A DNA stretch of 64,000 nucleotides from Giardia intestinalis. Its lineage: Eukaryota. Shown here one piece after another: positions 3,428-55,252 of the stretch. Each line of letters opens with the position of its first letter. Within the stretch, counting starts at the first letter, position 1. Both the position numbers and the translations under genes were made by a program. Location of the stretch: the NCBI GenBank assembly GCA_000002435.2, contig CM018790.1; one strand, 5' to 3'. Under the pieces are notes generated by a model, which did no database searches, had not been told where the DNA came from, and saw only the letters and a list, made by a program, of their open reading frames with translations.

Positions 3428-5641
3428 CTAAATAAGCTCGTGCCACGGGGCTCCACTGCAGACATATGCCATGGCAAATATGTTATTATATCGTTGATTC
3501 TCAAACAGAGGCATGTACGATGCAGCCTCCTTAGTAGGAAATATGCGGGTGAACATCCCAGAGCGCTGCTCTTCATCAGAGATTTGCATACAGATTCTTC
3601 GCTCCATCTCTGTGAGATTTGCCATCGCGCCTTGAGGAAGACCGTATCGTACCCGACCCTGTTTATCCATACGCCGCAGCTGATCGGTTGTCATACTTTT
3701 GCCGTTAGCGCTCGGCCGCATTTCATTGAAAGGTAAGCGTGGTAGGTCGGTCTTAGACTGGCTAGAATCAGAAAGGCTATCTGATGTGCGACAAGATTTG
3801 TTGGATTTGCTCGATAGTGAACTCGGTGAGGCGTTTGCGTTGGTTTTGACATTAACAGGGGTGTCACCTTGTTTTTTCTGGGCAGAGATGCTACCACTTG
3901 CAGCTACGTCTGCATCTGGGCATGGATTGGCGTCTGCAAGCCTCATAGATTGAGTAGGGGGGAGGCTCCCTGCCGAGAGGTAGAGTGCACTATCCAACAT
4001 CGCTTTTCCATGCACTGAGGCTGACGTCTGCGGTCGTGGAAGAGGTACGTTGCTAGACCCTTGGCGGATTGCTTCTCCAGATGTCTGAGCGCGCGCAGTT
4101 AGTTGGGTATTCCGTTCTTTAATAGACTTTGCTCTCTTTTCATCCTCTGTCATGATCGTTGGGACCATAATGTCCAGCTCATTACGCTTTTCAACAGGAA
4201 TGCCAATTGTGTTCAAAGCTTCCGCTATCATAGGGTATTTAACATTAACATCTAGCTGCGTTGATGTAGCTGTGGCCGGAGAAGAGTTGACTTCTATCAA
4301 GATTGGCTTCCCGTTGCTTTGAAGCATGATATCGAATCCATAGATTCCAAACGAGATCCTCGGGTAGGTGCTAGCCGTTCGTGCTTTGTGACCAAGGATA
4401 TAGAAATTTGGCTCACAAGCAATCAGTGTTTTGATTACTAGATCACATATGCTGGAGTATAGCCTTTGCTGAACAACCCCGTTGCCTGGGACACCAGCGT
4501 TTTTCACAATTGAATCTGGGTCTTTGCTGTCAAAACAATCCCTATTCATGTCCAGATGTGCAAACAGGTCTGATGCTTTCCATTTGGAGGGGAACGCAGT
4601 ATTACCTTGACAACTGTCATCCTCATCTTCAGGGTTAGAGTACTCATAGCTACTCATGCTACTATCGCTGTCGTCGCTACCAGTAGAATTAGAGGCAGAA
4701 CCCGATCCCTTGTTTAAAGAGCTTCCCGTACTGGTCATGGTCATGATTCGTTCAACCTTCTCTTGAAGCTTCCCCTTTTTAGCCTTCACAGGGCAATGCT
4801 TTCCTGAATCTGGATTCACAAATGTGTCTGAAGATGCATTAATGCTGAAATTGGTTAAGTGCATCTTTTTGAGCTTTTTATTGCGTATAGTCGGCTTGTG
4901 GTATTTACGCGTGGCGAACCTGCCCAGGCCCTCATTATATATGTACATTATAAGAGGATCTACAGAGGTTATTAGCACGTAAATCCGCAAATCAAATTTG
5001 TACCCGTTGACAAGAAGGGGGTTGGAGATGTACTTTTGCAAGACAGCGGGCTTATCATCAAGGATGGCGTCACCATTTGATAGCAATCTGATGCCCTCGC
5101 CCCTTGCTCCTAGGGCCGGTTTGTAGATATAAAAGGCGTCTGGATTCATTGCCATATCACGCACAGCAATGGAAGCAGATTGCGGGAGTATGTACGTCTT
5201 TGGGATAAAGTCGTAGAGCTCCTTACCAGATCTATTCTGGGCAGCTACGATGCAGGAGGCTAGCTTGTCCTTCCTGCCGATAGCATTAGATCCCGGCACC
5301 TGATTGCAGATCTGCCCCGCCACCAGGGTTGAATAGAAACTCACGTTTTTGGGGGACCCCCAGCATATATTGAATTTTCGGCAATTTTTTGGTCCTGGAA
5401 CAAATCCAGCATCCGCAAAGGTGCGCCGGATTGCCTTTGTAGTTGGTCCGGCATACCGCACAATTGGCTTAGCTTTAGGAAGGATGGTTGTGTCAGCAAC
5501 ATTTCCCAGAAACCAGTAATAATACCCAAGTGAAGGGAACAGCGACTTGGCTATTCTTACGTCTCCGATATGCCCTGCTTTAAGTTGTGAGCGCCTCTTG
5601 ATCTCTGCATCGGTGAGAGCATCTTTTTTAATTGGAAGCAT
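3428..5641 (-). CDS. Tubulin tyrosine ligase-like (TTLL) family protein
   Basis: 737-aa ORF. The TTL ATP-grasp core is present: QKYISNPLLVNGYKFDLRIYVLITSVDPLIMYIYNEGLGRFAT...NFYILGHKARTASTYPRISFGIYGFDIMLQSNGKPILIEVNSSP. ATG start near 5640. Convergent with the bystin gene, with about 29 bp between stops. Confidence 0.85.
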   Translation of the reverse strand: MLPIKKDALTDAEIKRRSQLKAGHIGDVRIAKSLFPSLGYYYWFLGNVADTTILPKAKPIVRYAGPTTKAIRRTFADAGFVPGPKNCRKFNICWGSPKNVSFYSTLVAGQICNQVPGSNAIGRKDKLASCIVAAQNRSGKELYDFIPKTYILPQSASIAVRDMAMNPDAFYIYKPALGARGEGIRLLSNGDAILDDKPAVLQKYISNPLLVNGYKFDLRIYVLITSVDPLIMYIYNEGLGRFATRKYHKPTIRNKKLKKMHLTNFSINASSDTFVNPDSGKHCPVKAKKGKLQEKVERIMTMTSTGSSLNKGSGSASNSTGSDDSDSSMSSYEYSNPEDEDDSCQGNTAFPSKWKASDLFAHLDMNRDCFDSKDPDSIVKNAGVPGNGVVQQRLYSSICDLVIKTLIACEPNFYILGHKARTASTYPRISFGIYGFDIMLQSNGKPILIEVNSSPATATSTQLDVNVKYPMIAEALNTIGIPVEKRNELDIMVPTIMTEDEKRAKSIKERNTQLTARAQTSGEAIRQGSSNVPLPRPQTSASVHGKAMLDSALYLSAGSLPPTQSMRLADANPCPDADVAASGSISAQKKQGDTPVNVKTNANASPSSLSSKSNKSCRTSDSLSDSSQSKTDLPRLPFNEMRPSANGKSMTTDQLRRMDKQGRVRYGLPQGAMANLTEMERRICMQISDEEQRSGMFTRIFPTKEAASYMPLFENQRYNNIFAMAYVCSGAPWHELI

Positions 5642-6330
5642 TATACACAGTCACAATTGCAGCAAGTTCCTATAGCACAACCGTAAGCGATAGACACAAT
5701 GATAGTCCGCTTCTTTCAATTTTTAAGGTGTCAGTTTTTATGTTTTTGCTGAGATGATGATTCGCTCCACCCACTGGTTGCTTCTAGCGTTGTGCTGCTG
5801 GGCTTTTTGCCCACCATGAAGGAAGGCCAAAAAGTGAGGCACCACTAGTGGACTAGGGGTCTGAGAGAAGACCTGAATTCCAGGCGGACCAACGCACATA
5901 CTCAGACTGAGCACATCCCTGCGGAACAACTGAGGGACGCAGAAGACTCCTGGTATACAAATGAAGGGAGATCCCTATTATATCATCAGCGACCAGCCAT
6001 AGTCTCCAGGCGGCCGGGAAGTGAGCGCGGCTTACCCATGAGACCTCTGAGCGCACCTGCAGGCGGGCCCAGTGATACAGTGACAGCAATGTACAGGAGT
6101 ACACCCCAATCAATCACTCCACAAGAGAGGTGCGATCTGAGTCTGGTCCTCACTGGTCATGTTCCTATGGAAGTCAGGGGGAACTGCGCTATCAACTGGC
6201 CTCCGGTGGGTGTGCTCCTATCTTATCCTTCTCCAGTCCAACTGATCAAGGAGAGCAAGAGCGGCTGTCTCTCACTGCTCGCGGCAACACACAAGTCTGA
6301 CGGAAGAGCAGTGGCATACTAACCCGGCTA

Positions 6331-6714
6331 ATGTTGGTAGGATTTCTCCTAGTTTTTGTGGTAACACAGGCCAACTGCGCACCAGAGCTGACCAGAGCGG
6401 GCTGCAAGACGTGTAGCCCCGACGGCCAGACCTGCACGGCATGCACCAACGATTCTCACAACGTACAGGTCGACGGGAAGAGCTGCGATGCCAACTGCCC
6501 GGAGCACTCCGCGGCGAACGGCCAGAAGGTGTGCGAGTGCGAGGGAGGATACGGCCCGGTCACCGGAGAGAACAGGTGCGAGCCTTCTAATACCAACAAG
6601 AGTAGCGGTCTTTCTACCGGCGCTATTGCAGGCATCGCTGTTGCAGCCGTCATTGTCGTCGGAGGCCTCGTTGGCTTCCTCTGCTGGTGGTTCCTCTGCC
6701 GGGGCAAAGCGTAG
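6331..6714 (+). CDS. Mini variant-specific surface protein (VSP)-like gene: signal peptide, CXXC motifs, TM helix and CRGKA tail
   Basis: ATG at 6331. The N-terminus [16 protein letters not shown] is signal-peptide-like. CXXC motifs are present ([14 protein letters not shown]). The C-terminal [33 protein letters not shown] is near-identical to the tail of VSP 52618..54816. AGTAAAT lies 17 nt after the stop. Confidence 0.7.
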
Positions 6715-6728
6715 ATGTAGACTTAGGT

Positions 6729-6735
6729 AGTAAAT
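6729..6735 (+). promoter_or_regulatory. Giardia-type polyadenylation signal AGTRAAY (AGTAAAT) downstream of the mini-VSP stop
   Basis: The sequence gcgtagatgtagacttaggtAGTAAATgctg follows the CRGKA stop codon. The same arrangement is seen after both full-length VSPs. Confidence 0.55.
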
Positions 6736-7070
6736 GCTGTATGGACATGTGGGCGGTGCTCTGGCGTGATTGAGCAATGGGTGCCCGATCTCTGAGCTCT
6801 CGTGGTCCTCATTCATAGACTCCCGTGGCCTCTGCATGAGAGCATCCGTTTGCGGAATGCTGAAGAGGCGCGCCTGTGTGTCGCCATGGCAGGAGCGTTG
6901 TGTCTCCCATGCATGCCCTTGCAGTCGTGCGTCATCCCCGGGACCCCAGCTCGGATCCTCAGACTCCACGGCGCAGGGAGAGGAGTTGGCCCGCTCCTGC
7001 CATCGCCTCGTCTGCGCGGCGGTCGTGGCTGTGCGCACCCTTGTATGCACTGGGCAGTGGAAGGACAGCC

Positions 7071-8417
7071 CTACGCATCGCTGACCCGTGCCTTGTGCTT
7101 CCTCTGCCTCCCCTCCTGGTCCTTCTGCGACCTCCCCCCGACCCCAGCGCGACGGCCGGAACTCACCTGCGTGCTCGCCATGCAGAGGAACAGGCGCGCT
7201 CCATCCACGGCCGTGAAGACGCATCGCAAGGCCCCTTCTGTCTCGTACAGGGCGCAGAACATGTGTGTCGAAGGGGCCAGCTCGCATGTGCCGATAGAGC
7301 GGGGGCCGTCTGTGCCGCTCTCCACGGGCATCCTGTGGAAGTGGAGAAGGCTTCCCCTGCAGAAGGCCAGACAGAGGCTTCCCGGGGCAGCCGAGGATGG
7401 GGACAGAGAGCAGATGCGGAACGACTCAGACTCCGGGGGCAGGCTCTGGGCCCCGAAGTCATCGAGTTCTATCGTGGAGAACGAGAGATGCGACAGCAGG
7501 CCGGAGACGACCAGGAGGACCGGCAGATCGGAGCGCTCGCCGGTCTCGGAAATGGCTGACACGGCGACGACAGCCGAGGTGCCACACATGCAGACGGCCC
7601 CGACCTGCGCCTCTGCAAGCCCGGGACCCTCTTTGCAGCGGTACAAGAGATGCTCCTCGGGGCTCGAGACAACAACCCGGGACATGTAGAACTCCGTGCC
7701 GGTCTGAGTGAACCACTCGAATCCCCGTAGCGCTGGGTCCAGAGTTGCGGGCTCCTGGAAGCAGACGCAGCACAGAACGACTTCTGCATCAGTCGTGGAG
7801 GCCAGGACATAGAGGAGGGAGGAGGCCGGATCGTAGCGCAGAGAGGGGCAGGCAGTGTCAGCGACGGAGACGGGGAGGACAGTTGCCTGGGGACACCCGC
7901 CGCGCAGGCAGAGCAGTAGAAGGCCAGTGCCTTGCGGGTCCTGTGCTGGGAGCCCAAACACAGCGACGAGGACACTTGCGGCCCCGCACCTCTCAGCAGA
8001 GAGGTTTCGGATAGGCCAGGGGATGTCCCGTGCGGGGTAGAGCAGGACTAGGCGATGCGTTCGATGGGAGCCTGCTACGAGCTCGTAGATGGCCGACACA
8101 GAGGCGAGGAAGACCCGCTCATCCAGGGCGCAGACCGCGGTCAGGGGCTCTCCCGGGGCGGCGCGTCCGAGGCTGCAGACACTTCTGCTGCCGCTGATGC
8201 CCTTGGAGGTGATTGCATGGACGATGGGGGCCCAGCTCTGCGTGGTTAGCGCCACGACAGCGTCCCCGCCGCAGACTCGCGCAACCACCGCAGCAATGAC
8301 CGGGGCGTCAAGCTCGGCCCTCCACTCGCACAGGGGGGATCCGGGGGCGTGGGCAGCGATATCCCCAGAAGAGACACCCGCGCGCTCCAGGGCGCTCATT
8401 TTAAGACTGAGGTCCAT
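7071..8417 (-). CDS. Hypothetical protein encoded in a GC-rich island (448 aa)
   Basis: This is the longest ORF in the ~64% GC block 6715..8900, with ATG at 8417. At this GC a chance 448-codon ORF is very unlikely, at roughly 1e-5. The composition is A/V/S/L/G-rich and protein-like, whereas the overlapping plus-strand ORFs (6802..7689, 8089..8859) are R/P/S/C-rich and look like shadows. No recognisable domain. Strand choice is uncertain. Confidence 0.4.
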   Translation of the reverse strand: MDLSLKMSALERAGVSSGDIAAHAPGSPLCEWRAELDAPVIAAVVARVCGGDAVVALTTQSWAPIVHAITSKGISGSRSVCSLGRAAPGEPLTAVCALDERVFLASVSAIYELVAGSHRTHRLVLLYPARDIPWPIRNLSAERCGAASVLVAVFGLPAQDPQGTGLLLLCLRGGCPQATVLPVSVADTACPSLRYDPASSLLYVLASTTDAEVVLCCVCFQEPATLDPALRGFEWFTQTGTEFYMSRVVVSSPEEHLLYRCKEGPGLAEAQVGAVCMCGTSAVVAVSAISETGERSDLPVLLVVSGLLSHLSFSTIELDDFGAQSLPPESESFRICSLSPSSAAPGSLCLAFCRGSLLHFHRMPVESGTDGPRSIGTCELAPSTHMFCALYETEGALRCVFTAVDGARLFLCMASTQVSSGRRAGVGGRSQKDQEGRQRKHKARVSDA

Positions 8418-8982
8418 AGCTCTGCAACGCCATCTGCACGTCAGCCCCGGGCAAACAGTCGGACTGTTCTCTTGGCCATATGCTCGCTGCTGCGGGGACC
8501 CCGAGCTGTTCTCACCTCGAGTCTTCGCAACAGCCCGGGCAGATGGGTGCAGAGGCAGTCACAGCGCGGCTAAGCCGTTGCCTGCAGGGCATTCTTCCAG
8601 CCAGGGGCAAGGTTTTGCAGCGAGACATGGCCTGCTTCAGACCATCAGGGAGCTCGCGCACGCAGACTACCGACCAGGTGGCTGCCGCCGTGCAAGGCGT
8701 GCGCTAAGATTGGAGTGGAGCGTTTACTGCCTTCCAAGCGGATGTGTTTCCTCAGCATGGTGGTCCGTGTGGTGGGAACGGATGCACACCATGGTTTGCG
8801 AAGGGGGCTCTAGGCTTCAGAATCCCAGTGATCACTTTGTTGCACCTTGCTACACATAGCAGGGGCGACGGAAGGAATCCAAGGGGTGCAGTCTTTGTAT
8901 GATGCGCCATCTGGATGCGCTGCAAGAGGCCCAGGAATTGCAGGCGTACTGCCACACGCGTTCTATGTGACCTGCAGTAAAA

Positions 8983-9618
8983 ATGCCGTCTATGGATGAC
9001 TTAGATCAATTCCTTCAGGAGTGCGACTGCGCCTTACTCCTCATGTCTGAGAAGAACACGAGCGAAGAGAGCGCAGGAAACTCAACTGAGTCTTCACAAA
9101 CAGATGATGAAGGCAGCGTGGACGAGGACGGCGTCACCACGCTTATGGAGGCAGCCAAAAGAAACGACGTGAAGGCGGTGAAGCGCTATATCCCTTATCA
9201 GGCAAGGATGGTGGCGAAGCTTGTCAAGGCAGGGAGAGTAGAGATATACGATGGGACGGCCCTGATGGTCGCTGCGGTGCTTGGACACACCAGAGTGGTG
9301 AAGCTGCTGATGAGGCACGAGCGTTGCATGAGGAGCAGTAATGAATGGACGGCCCTCATGTGGGCGGCACTTTTTGGCCGCACCGAGGTCGTGAAACTAC
9401 TCCTGGATGTTGAGGGAGGCATGCAAATAAACGGAGGTGTTACCGCCCTCACAGCTGCAGCAGGCTTTGGCCGTCTGGACTGTGTCAAGTTACTGCTGGA
9501 GAGAGAGAAGGACGTAGGCGGCGAGTCTGCTCTTTGTATGGCTAGTACACGAGGTCACCCCGAGGTGGCGTCTTTTCTTGAAAATAAGGGCATTAGGCTA
9601 GTGGATCCTTACCTGTGA
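8983..9618 (+). CDS. Ankyrin-repeat protein (Giardia Protein 21.1-like)
   Basis: ATG in the A-rich context gtaaaaATG. At least four ankyrin repeats are present (TALMEAAKRNDVKAVKRYI..., TALMVAAVLGHTRVVKLLM..., TALMWAALFGRTEVVKLLL..., TALTAAAGFGRLDCVKLLL). AGTAAAC lies about 22 nt after the stop (9640..9646). Confidence 0.8.
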   Translation: MPSMDDLDQFLQECDCALLLMSEKNTSEESAGNSTESSQTDDEGSVDEDGVTTLMEAAKRNDVKAVKRYIPYQARMVAKLVKAGRVEIYDGTALMVAAVLGHTRVVKLLMRHERCMRSSNEWTALMWAALFGRTEVVKLLLDVEGGMQINGGVTALTAAAGFGRLDCVKLLLEREKDVGGESALCMASTRGHPEVASFLENKGIRLVDPYL

Positions 9619-9963
9619 ATACTATCCAGAAAGCCCGTGAGTAAACGCGCTTAACTGTTGGTTGCATCCGACGGGGACTAGAGTCTCCCTCCAGCTGTGC
9701 AGGGGGACGGCTAGCCAATAGGGTGAAGTGATGGCTGTCAGTGGGGCACACAGCCACCCGTTTCCGCAGAGGCCAGGGGGCTGGCCTTCTCACCCTCGGT
9801 CAGCACTGGGACACCGGTGGGTGAAACGGTCGCACAGGTGGCCTTCTCGCTGCTGATGCAGAAGCCCTCCGCAAGCATTGGACCACTACAGATCTGTAGA
9901 CACAAACCCCTGTGGAAACGGATCGTTTCCAAAACTGTAGATTACCAAAATAATAAAACCAGG

Positions 9964-10841
9964 ATGCACGCTGCTTCGTCTGGATCTGCAACAATAGCTT
10001 TCAGTGCCCCGCAGTTCACCCCCAAGGAGCTCCACGAGGGGCTGGATGACGTGCTGGCCAAAGACCCCACAAGCACAATCTACTCTCTCGAAGCTATCTG
10101 GGCCTCGCTGTAAAGGTCATTCCACTAGGTTACCTGGACAAGAACAGTGCAGACGCCATCAGGACAAGGTTGACCACCCTCCCCGACCTCTCCCATCCGG
10201 GGGTCCTCAGGTACCACCAGGTGATTGAAGACGAGGGCCTCATCTACGTCGTCACGGACTGCCAAGACAAGACCCTCGAGCGCCCCCTCGCCGAGCACAA
10301 ACGAAGGAAGATCCCCGTCCCTATCACTATGATCCTCTCTGTCATGAAACAGATCGCCGCCGCCCTCGCCTACCTCCACAGCGTCAATGGGGCAAACACG
10401 AGAGGCCTCGTCCACTGCGACCTCAGGCCTGCCAGCATTCTTATCAACGCAGACGGAGAGCGCTTCATCATCGCCGACTTCGGCCTCTGTAAGGACGCCC
10501 TGTGGAGTGGGAACATTCTCATAGGAATAATGGCATACGTTGCCCCCGAGGTGCTCCTCCACAACGAGCCCAGCCCCGCCTCCGACGTGTGGAGCCTCGG
10601 GGTCATCCTCTACGAGCTTACTACTCTGAGGAGACTGGACTTCCTGAAAGGCAAGGAGCCGGCAGAGGTCTTCGTCGATGGGTGGAGGCCGGACCTGAGC
10701 GGTGTCACTGATGGCTTCATGCAGAATGTTCTGGAGAGGATCTTTGTACTAGAGCCAGAGAGGAGACCGACAGCCAGGGAGCTGCACGAGACGCTCACCA
10801 CATTCGACATCCCAGTTGGTGAGCTGGGGGTCAGTGCGTGA
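9964..10841 (+). CDS. NEK-like protein kinase with degenerate motifs and an apparent -1 frameshift near 10050..10112 (possible pseudogene or sequence error)
   Basis: ATG at 9964 in the context aaaataataaaaccaggATG opens 49 codons (MHAASSG...IYSLEAIWASL*) in frame 1. The kinase body is in frame 0 from 10050 and includes the track ORF 10170..10841, which starts at TTG. Motifs seen: LAVKVI (beta3 Lys), HCDLRPASIL (catalytic loop with K>R and N>S), ADFGLC (DFG), VAPEV, DVWSLGVILYEL. Confidence 0.55.
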
Positions 10842-11165
10842 TGCTGAGGTACAAGTGCGGATCCTTGAAGATTGCTTTGAATGGCGCTAACGCCAGGATC
10901 GCGCTTCTGGAAGAGGATGTTAAGATTAAATCCACTAGATCGACGCACTTGAAGACCAAAGTAAGGAGCATCTGGCCATGATTAAGGCACTGGAGAATAG
11001 GCTTGCACAGCTCAACATCAGAATAGCTACGACTGAGTCTCTGACCAGCCTCTTTTTGCTGCCCAGGCTGATGCGTGCCGCGCATACGAATAGCACGGAA
11101 ACCGTCTGGATGCTGCTTGAAGAAAGACTCGGCATCGACTAGTGCGACGAGCAGGGGCACGTTGA

Positions 11166-12118
11166 TCCCGTCGAGTTGCTTGTTGGGGAGGAGAGGGGCC
11201 TCCAGGACAAGAATGGCTGGACTACCTGATGATCGCCACAGAGGAGGGCCACACAGAAGCTGCCTCCCTTCTGGTCCCATATGAGAAGGACCTAATCGAT
11301 GGCGAAGGCAAGACGGCCTTGGTGATTGCGGCAGAAGCAGAACATGGAACTGTGGTGGAGGCCATCGACCCAACCGATGAGAACGGCGTCACGGCGCTCA
11401 TGCGGGCTGTTAATAGAAACGACGTGGAGGCTGTAAAAGCACTCTTACCCATCCAGAGGGGGAGGAAAACATACAAAGAGGTCATAGCAAGCAGATGGTA
11501 CATGCGCAAAGGAATAGCTCTGATGATGGCTGCGGCAAGTGGACACGCAGAACTGGTAGAACTGCTAGCAGAGCACGAAAACGGAGAGAAAGTAGGCGGT
11601 TGGACCGCTCCCGTATTCGCGGCACGGTGCAATCGTTCCAATGACCCCCTGGTGGACTATCCCAGGCGCGTTGAGCTTTTGATGGAGTATGAGAGCAATA
11701 TCTCAGAGTAGACGGAGCTCATGTATGCAGCAGCACGAGGGCACGAAGGGAGTGTAGAGCTGCTCAAGCAAGAAACTTGTATGAAGAATAACGAGCATCA
11801 GACTGCCCTCACGTGGACGGTGTGCAATGATCATCCAGAGTGCGTCAGGATCCTACTGAAGGACGAAGGCGGCATGCAAGCGACCAAGGGGGGACCGCCC
11901 TTATGAACGCAGCGTATAGCAACACCGTGGAGTGTGCAAGACTTCTTAAGGAAAACGAGAAAGATCTGAAGACAACCTGCAGCTGCCATGGTTACTCGCC
12001 CGGTACCACTGCCCTCAGTATCGCTAAGAAGAAGGATCACAAAGAGATAGTAGACATCCTCCCAAACGAGATCTACTCTGCTTCATCAAGGTCGGCTTGC
12101 CAGCTCCTGTCCGAGTAA
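11166..12118 (+). pseudogene. Ankyrin-repeat (21.1-like) gene disrupted by an in-frame TAG and a +1 frameshift; further degenerate ankyrin-like frames extend upstream to ~10950
   Basis: ORF pieces 11229..11711 (TALMRAVNRNDVEAVKALL...; IALMMAAASGHAELVELL) and 11721..11906 are in the same frame and are separated only by TAG at 11709..11711 (...NISE*TELMYAAARGHEGSVELL). A +1 shift occurs at the G6 run 11888..11893, continuing into ORF 11840..12118 (GGTALMNAAYSNTVECARLL...). An additional stop- and shift-interrupted ankyrin-like frame lies at 11075..11165. Confidence 0.55.
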
Positions 12119-12960
12119 ACCCGTCCAGAGTCCGAAGCTCGGATGCCGCCCACTCTGGAGAAGAGCCTTGTGCATCCCGCCTGGGAGCCGTTGGGTGCTC
12201 CACTATGCGCTCCGGGGCGTCCCTTCCTCTGGCTGGCTTGGGTCAACCATCGTCTGGCATCTAGTGAGCACCTGCTGTCCCGGGCCTTGCGTCGGTCACA
12301 GCGATCTAGTCTCGAGAGCAATTGACTCTGGCCATGTACTCCGGAGTAGCTTTGTGGTGCTGATGCTCTACGACGGAGATTGCACGCCACGACCCCGGGT
12401 GCCTACCCCGTTCCTCGGGTGCCTCCTTGTCTCCTCGTGGATTGTGCCGTCGGTCCCGAGCATGATCAGAGGGTGCGCTCCCCGTACGCCTCTATCTTTG
12501 AGTCATAGTACGCGTTCGTGGATGCCGGCGGAGTACTCCCATGCGTTGTGTCGGGGAAGAGGCCCATCTCTCTGCTCACGGACCGCAGAAGTGCTCCGTC
12601 ACCCAGCACGAGACCGTGTCGACGCTCACCCTGTGCAGTGCGTCTGGCTCAGTGACGTGTGGGCTGGTCCATCCTCACACCGCACACTTGGGGGTGATGC
12701 TTCGGTCTGTCGAGGCGTCGTCCAAAGCATCACGAGCGATCAAGACCGGTTCACCGAGGCCGTCTCTCTACAACCAGCACCCGTCTATTCGAGGGTGTCA
12801 GGTACTGCCAGCTGCTGTGGCAGACACCCGGCAGGTGGTCCAAGTCACCACTCTCCGGTGCGGGCAGGATCAGTCCGCCTCTGTCAGCCAAGCACTCCAG
12901 GGGCCCCATCTCTTGTCGAGGAATTCATATGGGTCACGTGTGGGTCCATCTTGACAAGCG
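12082..12960 (+). repeat. Dispersed GC-rich repeat R, copy 1 (paralog of 23530..24290); apparently non-coding
   Basis: Direct alignment with copy 2 starts at cttcatc[a/g]aggtcggcttgccagctcctgtccgagtaaa. It is about 90-95% identical over ~700 bp, with a 213-bp 100%-identical core at 12316..12528. Only low-complexity P/S/R-rich ORFs are present (12168..12974). The right boundary is approximate. Confidence 0.7.
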
Positions 12961-13333
12961 GGGCGAGTGATTAGTGCCATCACTAGCTTCGGTCCTCCGT
13001 TGCCCCCTCTATCGCCTCGGGGGAGGAGGCATAAATCTTCCTCGTCAGAAGTAGACGGCATCCGACCTTCGGATTTCGGATTCTGGGTCTCAGCTGATGA
13101 ACAAGCGAGAGACTGCCAGCCTAGTGTGGCAGTGGATTGCACGAGGGGATTTACTCAGGGCTCATTTGAGACTATAGACTAAACAAAAGGCAGTACAGTT
13201 TCTTGAAGAAAACTATGGTTATAGGCCAAAAGGCAGACAGGCCAAGGCTACATTATATTAACATCTTGGGTCAGTACTGGGGGTTCTAGGATCCTAGAGG
13301 ATTAGAGGTCAGAATAAATACTTTAAAAAACAC

Positions 13334-22538: not shown

Positions 22539-23546
22539 TCAAATTACTTTACTGCTCATTGACACCCCACTCTGCTTTCCTACTTCGTTGCTATCTGAGT
22601 CGCATTCGTCTGTACGGTCTCCAATATCCGGGTTCTGAACCATGAGCTCCTTATCTTCGCTGTTATCGTTCTTACTCTTCTTTCTCCTGTCCCTAAACGT
22701 GTATATAATTAATGCAACCGTCAAGACAAATAGCTGTACAGTCGAAGAAGTCATTGTTAAGTAGGTCATCCAATTAGCCTTAGATATGATAGCAAAAACG
22801 AACATACATAAGACGACAATGAACTGGATACTTGAAAGTAAGACAGACATGCTTCCTGGTGATTTGACTTTACATGTGTGGTAAATTTGGGGACTGAACT
22901 GTGCCAGGTTAAAGAAAAGGGATGTGATGGACAGTGCCAAAGTAAATCCACGGACCCATGGGGTACACATACCATAGAAGATCACAATTACAGTAGCTGC
23001 TGCGATGATGGATAGCATAACACCTAAAAATAGGAAGAAAGCAAGTACATGACACTTAGCTCTTTGAACATCTCCTTGATCACTGGTAGGCTCGGCTTCA
23101 GATGAGGTTGCATGATTGGTCTTGACCTTTGACACATATAATAAACGGATAGTGAGTGCATACCACCATATGAACCCCAATAGGAAGGCAGAGCTCTGCA
23201 GAAAGGGGATCATGTTTGAATAGCATAAGCCTGGGTTTTGAGGACAGGCGAAAATTTGAGGAAGGGTGGTGATATAGAATACACTAGTGGAAAATAAGAG
23301 AGAGTATGAAGCAACGTGTAAAAAGATGAACGAAATACTGTAAACGGATCTTGTTCGGTACATCTTCACCAGCTGAGGAATATATGAGATAACGATTAAA
23401 GCTAGGAGAATGCTGTTGAATATCGTAACAGGAAGGCTTATATTAGCTAGATAAGGTGTGTAGTCGTATGGATCTATAAACGTGCCGTCTTCAATATAGC
23501 AAGGGTTACGTATCATTTTAATAAAGCTCAATTTGCTCTTCTTCAT
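22539..23546 (-). CDS. PQ-loop repeat multipass membrane protein (cystinosin/LCT-family-like)
   Basis: 335 aa with about 7 predicted TM helices and two PQ motifs in the expected positions (VISYIPQLVKMYRTRSV and AQFSPQIYHTCKVKS). The ATG (MKKSK) at 23546 overlaps the left end of repeat R copy 2. Confidence 0.6.
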   Translation of the reverse strand: MKKSKLSFIKMIRNPCYIEDGTFIDPYDYTPYLANISLPVTIFNSILLALIVISYIPQLVKMYRTRSVYSISFIFLHVASYSLLFSTSVFYITTLPQIFACPQNPGLCYSNMIPFLQSSAFLLGFIWWYALTIRLLYVSKVKTNHATSSEAEPTSDQGDVQRAKCHVLAFFLFLGVMLSIIAAATVIVIFYGMCTPWVRGFTLALSITSLFFNLAQFSPQIYHTCKVKSPGSMSVLLSSIQFIVVLCMFVFAIISKANWMTYLTMTSSTVQLFVLTVALIIYTFRDRRKKSKNDNSEDKELMVQNPDIGDRTDECDSDSNEVGKQSGVSMSSKVI

Positions 23547-24290
23547 CGAGGTCGGCTTGCCAGCTCCTGTCCGAGTAAATCCGTCCAGGATCCGAAGCTC
23601 GGATGCCGTCCACTCTGGAGAAGAGCCTTGTGCCTCCTCGCCCGGGAGCCGTTGGGTGCCCCACTATGCGCTCCGGGACGTCCCTCCTCTCTGGCCCGTC
23701 GGGGTCAACCATCGTCTGGCATCTAGTGAGCACCCGTTGTCCCGGACCTGCCGTCGGTCACAGCAGTCTGGCCTCAGAGCAATTGACTCTGGCCATGTAC
23801 TCCGGAGTAGCTTTGTGGTGCTGATGCTCTACGACGGAGATTGCACGCCACGACCCCGGGTGCCTACCCCGTTCCTCGGGTGCCTCCTTGTCTCCTCGTG
23901 GATTGTGCCGTCGGTCCCGAGCATGATCAGAGGGTGCGCTCCCCGTACGCCTCTATCTTTGAGTCATAGTACGCGTTCGTGGATGCCGGGGGACAGCTCC
24001 TATGCGCTGGTATTGGGGGAGAAGTATGGTCCTCTGCTCATGGATCGCAGAGGTGCTCTTGCAGGCGGTCCGTCACCCAGCACGAGATCATGTCGGCGCA
24101 TCATTCTATGCAGTGCGTCTGGCTCAGCGACGTGTGGGCTGGTCCATCCTCACACCGCACACTTGGGGGTGATGCTTCGGTCTGTCGAGGCGTCGGTCCA
24201 GGGTCATCGACTGCTGGGACCCTCCACCATCAGGGTGGTAGACCAAGGAGAGGCGCCACTGATAGACGACGCAGATGGGTAAGTAAGCTA
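23530..24290 (+). repeat. Dispersed GC-rich repeat R, copy 2 (paralog of 12082..12960)
   Basis: Same orientation as copy 1. The 100%-identical core is at 23777..23989. It lies between the PQ-loop gene start and the 3' end of VSP 24541..26724. ORF 23533..24282 is low-complexity and is judged spurious. Confidence 0.7.
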
Positions 24291-24540: not shown

Positions 24541-26724
24541 CTACGCCTTCCCCCTGCAGATGAACCACCAGCAGAGGAACCCTACGAGACCAGCCACAAC
24601 GACGATGACAGCCACGGAGATCCCCGCGATAGCGCCCGCGCTGAGACCGCTCTTGTTGGTGTTCTGTATGAGGTAGCAGAGGACGGAGCCAGTACTAGAC
24701 GATGGAGGAGCGCAGTTTAGGCAACCCTTAATACCAGTGACCCCATTGCTATCACTTTCGCAGGATGTGCACGCACCTTCTCCTGATGCGGTCTTGTAGT
24801 ATCCTGTAGCACACGCCTTACATGTTGTAGCTGCTCCATTACATGTTTCGCAGCTGGAATCACACTTTGTGCATGCACTTGCACTCTTTACATATCCGTC
24901 CAGACACGTAGTACAGTCGGTACTGCTGGTACATTCCTTACACCCTTCAGAACAAACTGTAAGGGTACCTGAATCCAACTTGTAACCATCTGCAGCTTTT
25001 TGACACGTACCACCATTTGGTGCACTAATGCAAACCGTCTTACCGGGATACTTGACTGTTTCATAGCACCCTCCGTTCATCTTAAAGTAGTTATCGGCAC
25101 ACGTTCCACAAACACCATTCTGAATAGGCGAGTCGTTGCACGTAGGTGTGGCGCGGCTAGCCTTTGGTGCACAGACGCCATTTTGAGGATACTCTGTCGT
25201 TGTGGCGCACTCAGAGCAGTAGCTAGCACCATCGATAGTGAGCCCACACGTTTTGCAGGCGCCGCTGCCTTGGCCCGTTGTGCAGCCTTCTCCGCACGTG
25301 CCCTTAGTACCGTCGTCCCCGTACCTAAGTGCTTTTCCAGTGGGACACTCGGTGCAGTCGCTGGCAGTGCCTGCGCTGCATGTCTTGCAGCTTTCGTGGC
25401 ACGGAGAGCATGCGTCGCCGTTTTTATAGAATCCGTCGCTGCATGCTTGGCACTGCCCTTGCCCATCGCAAGTCTTGCAGTTAGCCGCAGTGCACTCTTT
25501 ACAGATTTTCTTTGCTCCTTCGGTAGCTCCATAGTAGTTTCCAATCTTAGCGCAGCTGTCTATGCACTGGCTTGTCGGCGTGAGATATGTGCTACTATCA
25601 CAGTCTGTGCAGACCTCGTTCTCCTTTCCTTCGTTGCTGCACGCCTTGCATCCGGGGGTCTTGCAGTTGCTTACCGCCTCGCACGTAGTTTTGTCGGCAC
25701 TAGGCTTGTATCCATTCGTGCAAGCGATGCACGTAATAGTGGGCGCTATCCTTCCTTGGTCTGTCGGAGTACACGCCGCGCACTTATCGACGCCCCCATT
25801 CGCAGCGTCACCGCATAAAACACACCTGTTTCCGCTCTGGGAATTTTCTACCGGAAAAGAGTCGGGTGAGCATGCGCTTTGCTCTACACATGTCGTTGTG
25901 CCATCAGCGGCCGTTTTGAGATAGTTATTGCCACCGCACTTCGTGCAAGCAGGCTTGGCTTGATCGGGACTTGGCGGCGTGCACTTTTCGCAACTCGCCA
26001 CCCCAGTGGTTACATCTCCGCATGCAAAGCATCTCTTGCCATTGTCAGAGTCCTCCTTCGAAAACTCAGTGTCAGGCGTGCAGCCCTCCCCACAAGTACC
26101 AGTCGTTGCAAGGTACTTATCCTGGCCGCACCTGGTGCACTTGGCGTCTCCGCCGGCAGCGTCTGTCAGCGCCGCCCCGTCGCATCTCTCGCAGTGCTGC
26201 ACCCCCCTGTACGTTTTGCCGCTGTCGGTGAACCCGGTCGTGTCCGAGCACGATACCACAGAGTCCTTGGTATTCGCCCTCAGCGGGTTGAGGAAGTACC
26301 CCGGGGCCGCCTCGGTGCACTTTCCCTCAGAGGCTTGCGTGCACATGCTCTGTCCTGGTGCAGTGTCCTTTGAATAACAGCCGTCCTTGTACATGAAGGA
26401 GGCGCCTCCGCACTGCGTGCACTTCCCCTGGCCCTTTGCCGGGCAGAGCGTTTTGCTTTGCCCCTCAGCGTTGACGTCTGCACACTGGCCGTTCACGGGG
26501 GCGTAGTTTGCTCCGTTGCACTCGGAGCAGTATTGTTCTTGGCCGATGGTGACGCCACACGTTTTACAGCTCCCATCGCTGCCTGATCCGTCTGCCTGAC
26601 ACGCAGCCCGTGCCAGCTGAAGGATGACGATCGCGAGCAAAAATCTGCCGAACATTGGGCCGCCGACCTGCTGGGTGGCGCCGGCCTTCCCCGGGAGAGG
26701 CGGGGTCGTCTGATGTGCCGACAT
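24541..26724 (-). CDS. Variant-specific surface protein (VSP), full length
   Basis: 727 aa, rich in CXXC motifs. It ends with a TM helix and ...FICRGKA. AGTAAAC lies 13 nt after the stop. The signal peptide MFGRFLLAIVILQLARA begins at the second Met (alternative start 26655). A 23-codon in-frame extension (MSAHQTTPPLPGKAGATQQVGGP) is conserved with the other VSP. Confidence 0.9.
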   Translation of the reverse strand: MSAHQTTPPLPGKAGATQQVGGPMFGRFLLAIVILQLARAACQADGSGSDGSCKTCGVTIGQEQYCSECNGANYAPVNGQCADVNAEGQSKTLCPAKGQGKCTQCGGASFMYKDGCYSKDTAPGQSMCTQASEGKCTEAAPGYFLNPLRANTKDSVVSCSDTTGFTDSGKTYRGVQHCERCDGAALTDAAGGDAKCTRCGQDKYLATTGTCGEGCTPDTEFSKEDSDNGKRCFACGDVTTGVASCEKCTPPSPDQAKPACTKCGGNNYLKTAADGTTTCVEQSACSPDSFPVENSQSGNRCVLCGDAANGGVDKCAACTPTDQGRIAPTITCIACTNGYKPSADKTTCEAVSNCKTPGCKACSNEGKENEVCTDCDSSTYLTPTSQCIDSCAKIGNYYGATEGAKKICKECTAANCKTCDGQGQCQACSDGFYKNGDACSPCHESCKTCSAGTASDCTECPTGKALRYGDDGTKGTCGEGCTTGQGSGACKTCGLTIDGASYCSECATTTEYPQNGVCAPKASRATPTCNDSPIQNGVCGTCADNYFKMNGGCYETVKYPGKTVCISAPNGGTCQKAADGYKLDSGTLTVCSEGCKECTSSTDCTTCLDGYVKSASACTKCDSSCETCNGAATTCKACATGYYKTASGEGACTSCESDSNGVTGIKGCLNCAPPSSSTGSVLCYLIQNTNKSGLSAGAIAGISVAVIVVVAGLVGFLCWWFICRGKA

Positions 26725-26870
26725 GCACGACTAGCGGCTAATAACCTACTGAGGCAATCGGTGGACACATCCACTATCAGTTATAAGTAGCTATGAATAC
26801 ATCATTTGGCATTGGTCTCCACGTTTATAATAGCAGCACATGTCTAACTAGATCACTGCCTTAATCTGGT

Positions 26871-52603: not shown

Positions 52604-52610
52604 ATTTACT
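52604..52610 (-). promoter_or_regulatory. AGTRAAY polyadenylation signal (AGTAAAT) of VSP 52618..54816
   Basis: Minus-strand sequence after the CRGKA stop: tgacttaggtAGTAAATgcg. Confidence 0.55.
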
Positions 52611-52617
52611 ACCTAAG

Positions 52618-54816
52618 TCACGCCTTCCCCCTGCAGAGGAACCACCAGCAGAGGAAGCCCACGAGGCCCCCCACGACAGCGACCACAGCGACGGAGATCC
52701 CCGCGATGGCCCCCGTGGAGAGCCCGCTCCTGTTGGTGTTCTGTATGAGGTAGCAGAGGACAGGCCCTTTATTGTTGGTTGGGGGAGCGCAGTTGGCGCA
52801 GTTGGCGACGCCGGTGATGGATCCGCCGTCGCTCTTGTCGCATGCTATGCACTTTTCTTTGGACAGGTAGTACCCTGCAGCGCACACCGTGCACTTGGTG
52901 GCGTCGTCCGCATTGCACTCGGAGCACCCAGTGGCGCAGGGAACGCACTTCTTAGTGTTACCGCCAGTCTTAGCATATCCAGCCTTGCACGTGTCGCACT
53001 GGTCCTGGCTGGTGCACGTCTTACATCCGGCCGAGCAAGTGATGAGCGCGCCGTTATTCAGTTTGTACCCGTCGGCCGGAGTCTGACAGGTATCGCCGGC
53101 CGGTGCTGCCTCCTCACAGACGTTCTTTCCAGGGAACTTAGTCGTCTCGTAGCAGCCCCCGTTCATACGAAGAAATCCGTTGGTGCATGAATTACACATA
53201 CCCTTGGCAACGCTTCCAGCCTTACAAGTGGCTGCAGCACGGACAGTTGTTGAGCTACAGACGCCATTTTGAGGATACTCTGTCGCTGTGGCGCACTCAG
53301 AGCAGTAGCTAGCACCATCGATAGTGAGCCCACACGTCTTGCATGCTCCTGCTCCTGTGCCCGTTGCGCATCCAGCTCCGCACGTGCCCTTAGTACCGTC
53401 GTCCCCGTACCTGAGTGCTTTTCCGGTGGGACACTCGGTGCAGTCGCTGGCAGTGCCTGCGCTGCATGTCTTGCAGCTTTCGTGGCACGGAGAGCATGCG
53501 TCGCCGTTTTTATAGAATCCGTCGCTGCATGCTTGGCACTGCCCTTGCCCATCGCAAGTCTTGCAGTTAGCCGCAGTGCACTCTTTACAGATTTTCTTTG
53601 CTCCTTCGGTAGCTCCATAGTAGTTTCCAATCTTAGCGCAGCTGTCTATGCACTGGCTTGTCGGCGTGAGATATGTGCTACTATCACAGTCTGTGCAGAC
53701 CTCGTTCTCCTTTCCTTCGTTGCTGCACGCCTTGCATCCGGGGGTCTTGCAGTTGCTTACCGCCTCGCACGTAGTTTTGTCGGCACTAGGCTTGTATCCA
53801 TCCGTGCAGGCGGAGCATGTAACGAGGGCAGCCCCTGATCGGCCACTAACCAGAGCACACGTGGCGCAATTGGCAATTCCGTCGGTGCTGTCATTACAAG
53901 GGAGGCATTTATTTCCTGCACTGCTGTCATCCTTGGGGAAGAAGCCGTCTTTGCATTGGTCTTTTTGTACGCACGACGTGCCTTCGCTTGTGGTTTTCAG
54001 GTAGTTGTTATCGGTGCATTTTGTACACTTGATCTTCTTAGATTGCTCATCGTAGCTGCAGGTGTCGCAATTGGCAACGCCACCATTGAGGTTATCGCTG
54101 CAAGAAACACATTTGTTGCCATTCTCAGAATCATCAACTGCAACGAACTTATTAGTGCTACCAGAATCGCACTGGGCTTTATCCACACACGTATTATCCT
54201 TGAGGTACTTATCCTGGCCGCACCTGGTGCACTTGGCGTCTCCGCCGGCAGCGTCTGTCAGCGCCGCCCCGTCGCATCTCTCGCAGTACTGCACCCCCCT
54301 GTACGTTTTGCCGCTGTCGGTGAACCCGGTCGTGTCCGAGCACGATACCACAGAGTCCTTGGTATTCGCCCTCAGCGGGTTGAGGAAGTACCCCGGGGCC
54401 GCCTCGGTGCATACGCCATCTCCGTCGGAACTTAAGCACAGGCTGTGTCCAGGAAGGCCTTCTCCGCTGGAATAACAGCCGTCCTTGTACATGAATGAGT
54501 TGCCTCCGCACGTCGTACAAGCCCCGCTGGCGTGTGCTTTGCAAAGAGCTTTTTTATCCGCCTGCGTCTCCACGTCCTCACAAGCACCGTTCACGGGGGC
54601 GTAGTTTGCTCCGTTGCACTCGGAGCAGTATTGTTCTTGGCCGATGGTGACGCCACACGTTTTACACTTTCCATCGTCAGCTTCTTGGGTGCAGGCTGTC
54701 CGTGCCAGCTGAAGGATGACGATCGCGAGCAAAAATCTGCCGAACATTGGGCCGCCGACCTGCTGGGCGGCGCCGGCCTTCCCTGGGAGAGGCGGGGTCG
54801 TCTGATGTGCCGACAT
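52618..54816 (-). CDS. Variant-specific surface protein (VSP), full length; mosaic paralog of 24541..26724
   Basis: 732 aa, rich in CXXC motifs, ending in a TM helix and ...FLCRGKA. AGTAAAT follows the stop (52604..52610). The first 40 codons are identical to the other VSP, and the ~140-aa block YKPSADKTTCEAVSNCKTPGCKACSNEGKENEVCTDC...GKALRYGDDGTKGTCG is also identical. The alternative signal-peptide start is at 54747. Confidence 0.9.
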   Translation of the reverse strand: MSAHQTTPPLPGKAGAAQQVGGPMFGRFLLAIVILQLARTACTQEADDGKCKTCGVTIGQEQYCSECNGANYAPVNGACEDVETQADKKALCKAHASGACTTCGGNSFMYKDGCYSSGEGLPGHSLCLSSDGDGVCTEAAPGYFLNPLRANTKDSVVSCSDTTGFTDSGKTYRGVQYCERCDGAALTDAAGGDAKCTRCGQDKYLKDNTCVDKAQCDSGSTNKFVAVDDSENGNKCVSCSDNLNGGVANCDTCSYDEQSKKIKCTKCTDNNYLKTTSEGTSCVQKDQCKDGFFPKDDSSAGNKCLPCNDSTDGIANCATCALVSGRSGAALVTCSACTDGYKPSADKTTCEAVSNCKTPGCKACSNEGKENEVCTDCDSSTYLTPTSQCIDSCAKIGNYYGATEGAKKICKECTAANCKTCDGQGQCQACSDGFYKNGDACSPCHESCKTCSAGTASDCTECPTGKALRYGDDGTKGTCGAGCATGTGAGACKTCGLTIDGASYCSECATATEYPQNGVCSSTTVRAAATCKAGSVAKGMCNSCTNGFLRMNGGCYETTKFPGKNVCEEAAPAGDTCQTPADGYKLNNGALITCSAGCKTCTSQDQCDTCKAGYAKTGGNTKKCVPCATGCSECNADDATKCTVCAAGYYLSKEKCIACDKSDGGSITGVANCANCAPPTNNKGPVLCYLIQNTNRSGLSTGAIAGISVAVVAVVGGLVGFLCWWFLCRGKA

Positions 54817-55252
54817 GCACTAACAACGGCTACTGAACGTTAAAGTAACCAGCATTCACACTGGTATTTCGTTACTGACAGAGTAAAGTATGATTATGCG
54901 CTAGAGATAAGGTCCCAAGTCTGGATTTGCATTAGGATGAGCGAGTACACCACCAATTAATTAAGACAGCGTAAACACACTACAATTATATAACCAATAT
55001 CAAATGAAGCTGATTAGATGCGTACCTTTATAGGCTCCATGGCCATATGTACTCCTGACTTGGAATTTAAATGAATTTTAACAGCTCAGTGTGCACCTAG
55101 TTCACATGTCAAGTTGCCAATTGTCAAGTCGACCAGATGAGTGACAGCTTAACGGCAGGTGTAATCAGCATACTAAGAGATGACTAGGTGATGGGGGCTC
55201 ATATTAAATTAAAAAGCTTGCCCATCAACCACAAACAAATTTTTTGCCAAAA

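Follow-up and report, generated by a model that had tools for sequence, protein, structure and literature searches.

The VSP-46 gene and its flanking signals

The stretch of DNA that was analyzed, here called the window, is 64 kb long and carries on its plus strand a complete coding sequence of 127 codons followed by TAG (6331-6714; ATG at 6331, TAG at 6712-6714). The open frame starts at 6301 and an in-frame stop lies just 5' of this position, so that no 5' extension of the gene is possible in WB. The product is 100% identical over all residues to XP_001708197.1/KAE8302093.1 (UniProt A8BB29), annotated as 'VSP' in Giardia intestinalis WB C6, and the identical 127-aa protein is present in both the 2007 and the 2020 WB annotations. 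In Additional file 1 of Adam 2010 (PMC2996952) the gene is VSP-46, GL50803_8595, a complete clade III gene of chromosome 2, for which an Inr of TAATGTT, a length of 127 aa, a mass of 13.0 kDa, 12 cysteines (9.4%) and 2 CXXC motifs are given. Clade III of that table consists mostly of short genes (74-438 aa). The identical coding sequence is found, as GL50803_008595, among the 136 complete VSPs of Rodriguez-Walker 2022 (bioRxiv 10.1101/2022.03.07.483299), whose S1 and S6 rows list a predicted signal peptide, the tail CRGKA and the extended poly(A) signal GACTTAGGTAGTAAATGCTG. The VSP length range stated in the same preprint is 127-2293 aa. Because this range starts at 127 aa, GL50803_008595 is the shortest complete VSP, or is tied for that place.

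The gene does not belong to the VSP pseudogenes (pVSP, classes I and II of Rodriguez-Walker), which are defined as having no ORF, or an ORF that lacks the start codon, the signal peptide, the TM or the tail. All four are there in VSP-46, and it is classed as a complete VSP and not as a pVSP in the published set (bioRxiv 10.1101/2022.03.07.483299). The gene ID GL50803_008595 had no main-text mention in the literature search, and it is in neither the orthologue/expression table of Franzen 2013 nor the supplements of Tenaglia 2023. The sequence-only reading had allowed that the gene might be a piece of a larger one disrupted by an assembly error. It is no assembly artefact: the 2007 and 2020 annotations agree, and three independent assemblies of assemblage A2 have a positional orthologue with the same one-module layout.

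The start codon is embedded in the VSP initiator or Kozak-like motif PyAatgTT, which reads cTAATGTT here (6329-6335, plus strand; ATG at 6331-6333), is listed as 'taatgtt' in table S1 of Rodriguez-Walker and as 'TAATGTT' in Adam 2010, and had been overlooked by the sequence-only reading. PyAATGTT is carried by 135 of the 136 VSPs (bioRxiv 10.1101/2022.03.07.483299). On the 3' side, the AGTAAA hexamer at 6729-6734, 14 nt past the stop, is correctly placed for polyadenylation, as had been noticed earlier. The VSP extended polyadenylation signal is the 15-mer ACTTAGGTAGTAAAT (6721-6735, plus strand), which corresponds to the S6 row of Rodriguez-Walker. The same 15-mer follows the 732-aa VSP of the window (52604-52618, minus strand), so the earlier remark that the 3'-flank element is common with another VSP stands. 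The criterion for the extended signal is ACUUAGRUAGURAAYRY within about 28 nt of the stop, and in VSP-46 ACTTAGGTAGTAAATGC starts 6 nt past TAG. The signal is found in all 136 VSPs, with a median distance of 6 nt to the stop, and together with the Inr it is described as near-universal and VSP-specific (bioRxiv 10.1101/2022.03.07.483299). A degenerate form of the 15-mer, ACTYAGRTAGTRAAY, occurs exactly three times in the 64 kb, each time directly 3' of a CRGKA ORF; our own estimate of the chance expectation, from base frequencies, is about 0.001 occurrences.

The two large CRGKA genes of the window fit rows of the Adam 2010 table that neighbor VSP-46. These are VSP-44 (417-4, GL50803_113450; 732 aa, 29 CXXC; 52618-54819, minus strand) and VSP-45 (417-6, GL50803_113439; 727 aa, 29 CXXC). 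As an intact VSP with one module, already annotated and from an antigen family that has been described well, GL50803_008595 is ordinary and no discovery. The Giardia gene catalogue gains nothing from it; gene, start motif and extended poly(A) signal are all in print already.

A single ten-cysteine module

The protein matches Pfam VSP (PF03302) with 80 bits against a cut-off of 31.4 (E=2.1e-22), and residues 20-127 align to profile positions 288-397 of 397. The earlier description of a miniature VSP with a signal peptide, a TM helix and the CRGKA tail was accurate in this respect. The predicted signal peptide comprises residues 1-16 (6331-6378, plus strand). Its N terminus is hydrophobic and is followed by NC, and cleavage is likely after A14. 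The call is taken from table S1, in which agreement of at least two of Phobius, SignalP and TOPCONS was required (bioRxiv 10.1101/2022.03.07.483299). The conserved VSP transmembrane helix spans residues 98-122 (6622-6696, plus strand), as judged from the sequence, the Rodriguez-Walker tables and the AF2 model, and its dN/dS against relatives is 0.01-0.11. It is followed directly by the five-residue cytoplasmic tail CRGKA (6697-6711, plus strand).

The 12 cysteines (9.4%) place the protein at the minimum of the Adam 2010 criteria for a cysteine-rich VSP (PMC2996952). They include the motifs CKTC (25-28), CTAC (35-38), CDANC and CEC, so that two CXXC, one CXXXC and one CXC are present and not the one CXXC cluster that had been reported from the sequence at first. 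Ten cysteines constitute a single ectodomain module, residues 16-88 (6376-6594, plus strand), which is supported by cysteine alignments and by an AF2 pLDDT of 85-91. A full-length alignment could be made of thirteen one-module relatives, taken from WB, DH (A2), P15 (E), GS-B-type sequences and metagenomes. Nine cysteines (C25, C28, C35, C38, C52, C56, C68, C70 and C83) are invariant in it, and the tenth, C16, nearly so. All ten cysteines of the module also align with those of other VSP units, at 38-66% identity.

The VSP-46-type unit is repeated to a very different extent in different proteins. Two copies are present in GL50803_00112207 (P0011), and 28 copies with a 75-aa period make up the array of KAE8302825.1 (P0121, 2153 aa). 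The neighbor of the latter gene, GL50803_00102178 (P0007, 128 aa), consists of the P0121 signal peptide, one unit, and the TM and tail; the unit thus exists at n=1 and at n=28. VSP-46 itself is not a tandem-repeat VSP of the vspA6/CRP170 type, to which KAE8302825.1 belongs and for which at least two head-to-tail copies of a 105-516-nt unit in the ectodomain are required. It has a single unit, homologous to the repeat units. TRF found no tandem repeats in 5600-7100, and there are no inverted repeats around the gene. Judged from these alignments, the ectodomain of VSP-46 is one complete ten-cysteine module of about 70 aa and not two leftover ends.

In the AF2 model, calculated with a 37-sequence alignment, the pLDDT of the ectodomain is 85-91 and the TM helix is at residues 104-124. 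The best Foldseek matches of the modeled ectodomain are all furin-like cysteine-rich repeats, e.g. RSPO2 Fu1-Fu2 (probability 0.84-0.89, rmsd 2.4 Å over 55-58 columns). Because no match is significant (best E=0.19), the furin-repeat likeness is a resemblance only. A sequence search of the PDB with VSP-46 gave just spurious TM-helix matches to the glucagon receptor.

The variable-gene island and the upstream spacer

VSP-46 is located in a GC-rich island of 7.6 kb (5754-13322) that was delineated by comparison of assemblages and by GC content, and that is flanked by two conserved divergent core genes. One of these is a TTL-like (tubulin-tyrosine-ligase-like) gene (3428-5641, minus strand), which is divergent to VSP-46; the other encodes a protein of 2057 aa (13334-19507). 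In assemblage B (L006 and L007) and in another lineage (L008) a distance of 268-505 bp separates the TTL-like gene from the orthologue of the gene for the 2057-aa protein. The homology of WB to these sequences ends at 5753 and restarts at 13322/13323, and the 7.6-kb island of WB is defined by these two breaks. The island is missing in assemblage B and in the L008 lineage and is colinear in assemblage A2. Its GC content is 55-67%, compared to 42-50% in the flanks. Besides VSP-46 it contains a 448-aa ORF with no Pfam match, an ankyrin (protein 21.1-like) gene, a kinase (NEK) fragment, ankyrin fragments and a 650-bp repeat that occurs 3' of VSP 417-6 as well. The island matches a published pattern, in which non-syntenic GC-rich islands harbor VSP, 21.1 and NEK genes (PMC3091692). 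Assemblage E (P15) has other VSPs, of 475 and 768 aa, on the same side of the TTL gene, and their similarity to VSP-46 at the DNA level is confined to the TM region and the poly(A) signal.

The divergent spacer between the TTL-like gene and VSP-46 (5642-6330) has no Rfam match, no VSP remnants and no repeats. Its TTL-proximal 112 bp (5642-5753) are conserved with assemblages B and E, and the remainder is island DNA. It had been described as unusually long and ORF-free. The 689 bp are indeed non-coding, but the spacer is not literally free of ORFs, as mechanical ORFs of up to 94 aa are present; none of them is conserved. At 6038 the A2 spacer reads GTG where WB has the ATG, and the two spacers are further separated by indels, three of 1 nt, which break the frame, and one of 3 nt. 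Neither the spacer nor the island gave an Rfam match at E<=1, and a tblastn search of the island with about 130 VSP proteins, for VSP remnants or a second exon, found only VSP-46 itself.

In window coordinates, successive core ORFs are separated by a median of about 90 bp, compared to 425-1447 bp beside the three VSPs, and 'an extended noncoding region upstream' is typical of vsp genes (Adam 2010, PMC2996952). The 689-bp spacer is therefore long for Giardia and normal for a VSP. Both traits that had seemed special in the sequence-only reading, the 3' element and the long spacer, are documented hallmarks of the family, since they have been published as generic VSP features.

The A2 orthologue and the mosaic divergence of VSP-46

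With a sequence identity of about 90%, the island is found colinear in DH (L011), an A2 isolate, and likewise in the metagenome contigs L012 and L013. At the position of VSP-46 all three carry an identical, intact one-module VSP of 141 aa, in which cTAATGTT, ACTTAGGTAGTAAAT, the start codon, the signal peptide and all module cysteines are kept. The sole length change is a 42-nt in-frame indel within a replaced patch, and WB is shorter by 14 codons.

The differences between WB and A2 are distributed very unevenly. Codons 1-8, 23-52 and 65-88 differ at 0%, 2.2% and 4.2% of nucleotides, respectively. Between and beyond these quiet segments are three putative gene-conversion patches, all on the plus strand: codons 9-22 (6355-6396) with a 52% nucleotide difference and the 42-nt indel, codons 53-64 (6487-6522) with 42%, and codons 89-127 (6595-6711) with 19.7%. 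The dS of the last patch is about 2, and its codon differences are 18 synonymous and 2 non-synonymous; the dS of the neighboring TTL gene between WB and A2 is 0.028. The dispersion index of the differences is 4.0, a value that was not reached in any of 20000 permutations preserving codon position. Synonymous codon changes number 2/54 in the quiet segments and 18/39 in the TM patch (Fisher p=9e-7, with segments picked after seeing the data).

The TM patch of WB matches a non-orthologous mini-VSP of DH at 100 of 117 positions, compared to 94 of 117 for the positional orthologue. Furthermore, each variant of the first patch has counterparts in paralogues, with VSP-113 of WB resembling the A2 form and P0008 and P0005 resembling the WB form. 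In the simplest reading of this pattern, at least three short gene-conversion tracts would have been laid down since the A1/A2 split. The sequence-only reading had proposed a donor or acceptor stub, and this is supported in part, as clustered differences of this kind are what conversion tracts would leave; the gene, however, is intact and no stub.

The overall dN/dS of VSP-46 against A2 is 0.19, and against distant one-module VSPs the value is 0.30-0.48 for the module and 0.02-0.11 for the TM, at a dS of 0.66-1.07. The apparent purifying selection partly reflects the donors, because much of it falls in converted patches. The 54 unconverted codons contain 5 differences between WB and A2, which are too few to prove constraint at the VSP-46 locus. 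Four relatives (P0002, P0004, P0005 and P0006) were considered as orthologues and rejected. They are located at other loci beside kinases or a retroelement and are non-syntenic, paralogue-type relatives. A scan of JGI metagenomes for relatives confirmed none.

Relation to other cysteine-rich proteins

The published VSP-46 is the gene itself, as there is no difference in coding sequence, Inr or extended poly(A) signal between the window and the published tables. Its close counterpart is GL50803_00102178 (VSP-156), the 128-aa neighbor of the 28-unit protein described above. Like VSP-46, it has a signal peptide, one ten-cysteine unit, a TM of the same type and CRGKA; the modules share 10/10 cysteines and 48% of residues, and the overall identity is 61%. 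It differs in having another locus, a CAATGTT Inr and peptide evidence. GL50803_0026894 (VSP-113, 142 aa; P0012) shares the signal-peptide start MLVGFLLV and one module with VSP-46, at 58% identity. It has an extra N-terminal segment of about 14 aa, which WB VSP-46 lacks, and in its longer N-terminal segment 21 of 31 residues agree with the A2 orthologue of VSP-46.

The 'core' VSPs, e.g. VSP 417-4, have motif 2, CRGKA, the Inr and the extended poly(A) signal in common with VSP-46. VSP-46 differs from VSP 417-4 in that it has no membrane-proximal motif 1, 2 instead of 29 CXXC and 127 instead of 732 residues. The Giardia CRMP/HCMP proteins resemble VSP-46 in having a signal peptide, a cysteine-rich ectodomain and a single C-terminal TM. 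However, CRMPs lack the CRGKA tail, the Inr and, mostly, the extended poly(A) signal, whereas VSP-46 has all three. The furin-like repeats of R-spondin and the cysteine-rich domains of EGFR, HER2 and the insulin receptor are similar to VSP-46 in predicted fold only, with no sequence relationship.

The two large VSPs of the window were examined as possible parents of VSP-46, and neither is. BLASTP and BLASTN match the TM and tail at 76-77% of nucleotides, and upstream of it just the generic cysteine spacing aligns.

Expression and surface display

The expression of GL50803_008595 had been suggested for verification by RNA-seq or proteomics. Neither unique nor shared peptides of it were detected in the reanalyzed proteomes (S13, Rodriguez-Walker). 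Three tryptic peptides of 16-24 residues would be expected, as judged by eye from the sequence, and may be non-unique. Three short paralogues of the same type do have peptide evidence (GL50803_00102178, 00112207 and 00112693), 130 of the 136 VSPs are transcribed in at least one of 91 transcriptomes, the other 6, given without names, lack transcription evidence, and the preferred VSPs are those of median length (bioRxiv 10.1101/2022.03.07.483299).

Published predictions for the arrival of VSP-46 at the surface are in conflict. DeepLoc places all 136 VSPs in the plasma membrane. Li 2013 (PMC3656445) found that surface localization requires the membrane-proximal motif 1 in combination with the TM motif, that this pair suffices, and that CRGKA is neither required nor sufficient; three CRGKA-tailed proteins remained intracellular. 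Motif 1 has the form GYY…CXXC-(12-15 aa)-CXXC…(G/T)(S/P)VxCY and is located about 17 aa upstream of the TM motif. When searched for as a regular expression, it was found in both large VSPs of the window and was absent from VSP-46, the two CXXC of which are 6 aa apart and roughly 60-70 residues upstream of the TM helix. Motif 2, the conserved 38-aa hydrophobic C terminus, is present. Lacking motif 1, VSP-46 does not fit the definition of the 'core VSPs' (73 genes) in the sense of Li, Saraiya & Wang 2013 (PMC3656445).

Interpretation of the locus

VSP-46 is an intact type I membrane protein gene, in which a signal peptide, one ten-cysteine module of about 70 aa, a TM helix and CRGKA are combined with the VSP start and poly(A) signals. 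It is probably a normally silent, n=1 member of a modular VSP group, and it has exchanged patches with its paralogues. A functional minimal CRGKA-tailed membrane protein would be the best fit of the three readings that had been offered from sequence. Since the single module is the block that is amplified in giant VSPs, VSP-46 is best understood as a modular subfamily's state with n=1 and not as the wreckage of a 700-aa VSP.

Entry of VSPs into the ER, loss of the signal peptide, anchoring by the TM and palmitoylation of the tail cysteine are established VSP biology. By analogy, VSP-46 would normally be silent like other VSPs. Its production would be limited to rare cells in which, expression being mutually exclusive, it is the VSP selected. 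Its product would enter the ER, where the signal peptide would be removed. The module may fold as a disulfide- or metal-stabilized unit resembling a furin repeat, and the protein would be anchored by the TM helix, with its tail cysteine palmitoylated.

An unlikely alternative, but one with several observations behind it, is that VSP-46 looks intact and is functionally dead. It would never form a surface coat, its ORF would be kept open by gene conversion from functional paralogues, and its main role, if it has one, would be to store or receive module and TM sequence for recombination. The three conversion-like patches span about half of the coding sequence, the reanalyzed proteomes contain zero peptides of GL50803_008595, motif 1, which the experiments of Li 2013 require, is missing, fragmentary kinase and ankyrin ORFs are found in the same island, and incomplete VSPs have been proposed to be a sequence reservoir by Rodriguez-Walker (bioRxiv 10.1101/2022.03.07.483299). 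Set against this are the retention of the Inr, the extended poly(A) signal, the start codon, the signal peptide and the module cysteines in both A1 and A2, the transcription of 130 of the 136 complete VSPs somewhere, and the peptides of short paralogues with the same type of module. Moreover, no donor tract was identified among the sequences compared, which leave out the remaining WB repertoire.

The collapse of a full-length VSP of 500-700 aa to its two ends, by a large internal deletion or by unequal crossing-over, was another of the earlier suggestions, and we regard it as very improbable. The 475-aa VSP of P15 does occupy the equivalent position upstream of TTL, but it matches the DNA of VSP-46 in the TM region and poly(A) signal only. 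WB is 14 codons shorter than its A2 orthologue, yet that orthologue is also a one-module protein, as are the relatives in assemblages A, B and E and in metagenomes. Arrays of module repeats could in principle shrink to n=1; the locus, however, has no tandem repeats and no VSP-like remnants elsewhere in the island, the ectodomain is a whole conserved unit and not two junction fragments, and neither large VSP of the window is the source, because beyond the TM just generic cysteine spacing aligns. It is even harder to believe that VSP-46 is a non-variant, constitutive small CRGKA protein outside antigenic variation, such as a coat spacer, a raft organizer or a protective partner in switching. Its position is conserved between A1 and A2, its one-module architecture is conserved across assemblages, and a few positionally conserved VSPs of unknown function were noted by Jerlstrom-Hultqvist 2010. 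Nevertheless, the Inr and the extended poly(A) signal of the gene are VSP-specific and tied to mutually exclusive expression, and a constitutive product should appear in proteomes, in which GL50803_008595 did not. Assemblage B lacks the locus and E has a different one, and VSP-46 therefore has no conserved core function.

What is new here is the single complete module, the lineage-specific island with an A2 orthologue, the clustering of conversion patches, and the combination of a missing motif 1 with a lack of peptides. As the shortest complete VSP, VSP-46 is a clean minimal case. Its positional orthologue in A2 is unusual because VSPs are rarely syntenic, and the patchwork of conversion tracts is readable against a very low background divergence (neighbor dS 0.03), which makes the locus a useful marker for gene-conversion rates in the VSP family. 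Since the gene has no motif 1 and yet every VSP expression signal, it is a natural test of the need for motif 1 in surface display, and it would be a handy construct for defining the minimal requirements of VSP trafficking and coat formation. More speculatively, and with considerable doubt, one-module VSPs, of which VSP-46 is the smallest, might be a maintained functional class, acting as seed units for tandem amplification into giant VSPs and as hubs of patchwise gene conversion that shuffles module and TM segments between loci.

Existing gene calls at the A2 position of VSP-46 are misleading. In the DH annotation an upstream open frame is fused to the gene, giving a 238-aa product with a non-ATG start, and on the metagenome contigs the gene callers picked a 205-aa antisense ORF over the VSP.

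Genomic setting of the mini-VSP

The mini-VSP gene (VSP-46, GL50803_008595; 6331..6714) lies in a GC-rich variable-gene island of 7.6 kb (window 5754..13322, GC 55-67%). The island is flanked by two conserved core genes that are transcribed divergently: a tubulin-tyrosine-ligase (TTL)-like gene on the left (3428-5641, minus strand) and a gene encoding 2057 amino acids on the right (13334-19507, plus strand). It is missing from assemblage B and from a second lineage, and in P15 (assemblage E) its position is occupied by other VSPs. In assemblage A2 the island is colinear with that of WB at an identity of about 90%. Besides the mini-VSP, it contains pieces of the ankyrin and NEK-kinase families.

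Close to the left edge of the island, at window position 5839, WB/A2 identity falls from 98.5% to 91.6%. The same position is the end of a Logan contig from an assemblage A isolate (SRR3177919, 99% identity to WB; position 1 of its locus L010 corresponds to 5839), and this coincidence suggests that the island edge is polymorphic, heterozygous or repeated in that isolate. Part of the spacer upstream of the mini-VSP (5810..6004) matches, in inverted orientation, a segment of the A2 isolate DH (L001 8499..8690; 67% over 198 bp, E=6e-7), which is situated 115-306 bp downstream of P0006, a non-orthologous DH mini-VSP. A direct repeat of about 650 bp has one copy (12076..12724) at the island's right edge. 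The other copy (23536..24200, 89.5% identity) is positioned about 340 bp 3' of VSP 417-6, and the repeat could be a shared VSP-flank or a recombination substrate.

Open reading frames of the island

Public gene calls at the A2 locus orthologous to the mini-VSP are wrong in two different ways. In DH, the call (L011 8888..9604) is a 238-residue 'VSP' with a non-ATG start, to which an upstream open frame has been fused. In two A2-type metagenome contigs (L012 2986..3603 and L013 2002..2619), an antisense ORF of 205 residues is called in place of the 141-residue VSP. In WB, a 312-residue antisense ORF (6349-7287, minus strand) likewise covers nearly all of the mini-VSP gene.

A 448-residue ORF (7071..8417, minus strand), without a Pfam match, is located in DNA with a GC content of 63-67% and is overlapped by several further long ORFs on both strands. 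It is equal in length in the A2 metagenome contigs (96% nucleotide identity, dN/dS 0.35), and could be either a genuine gene specific to the lineage or an open frame that results from the GC content. Farther to the right, a kinase ORF (10170-10841) starts at position 52 of the Pkinase profile, and short ankyrin ORFs in differing frames flank it (11229-11711 and 11840-12118). The region 9817..12118 has the appearance of a NEK-ankyrin gene that has been frameshifted or broken into fragments. The DH gene calls for this region are a kinase of 353 residues and an ankyrin protein of 243 residues.

Large VSPs of the window

Both large VSPs, 417-4 (GL50803_113450, 52618..54819, minus strand) and 417-6 (GL50803_113439, 24541..26730), carry the initiator motif (Inr) CAATGTT at an internal in-frame ATG, MFGRFLLAIVILQLAR… (positions 54747 and 26655, minus strand), which follows the first ATG at a distance of 69-72 nucleotides (23-24 codons). 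The leader preceding this ATG, MSAHQTTPPLPGKAG…, is almost the same in the two genes. The Inr ATG is probably the true start of both. VSP 417-4 is reportedly among the few VSPs preferentially dominant in culture, and accounted for 74-79% of the VSP transcripts in one published clone. Unique-peptide evidence exists for both large VSPs.
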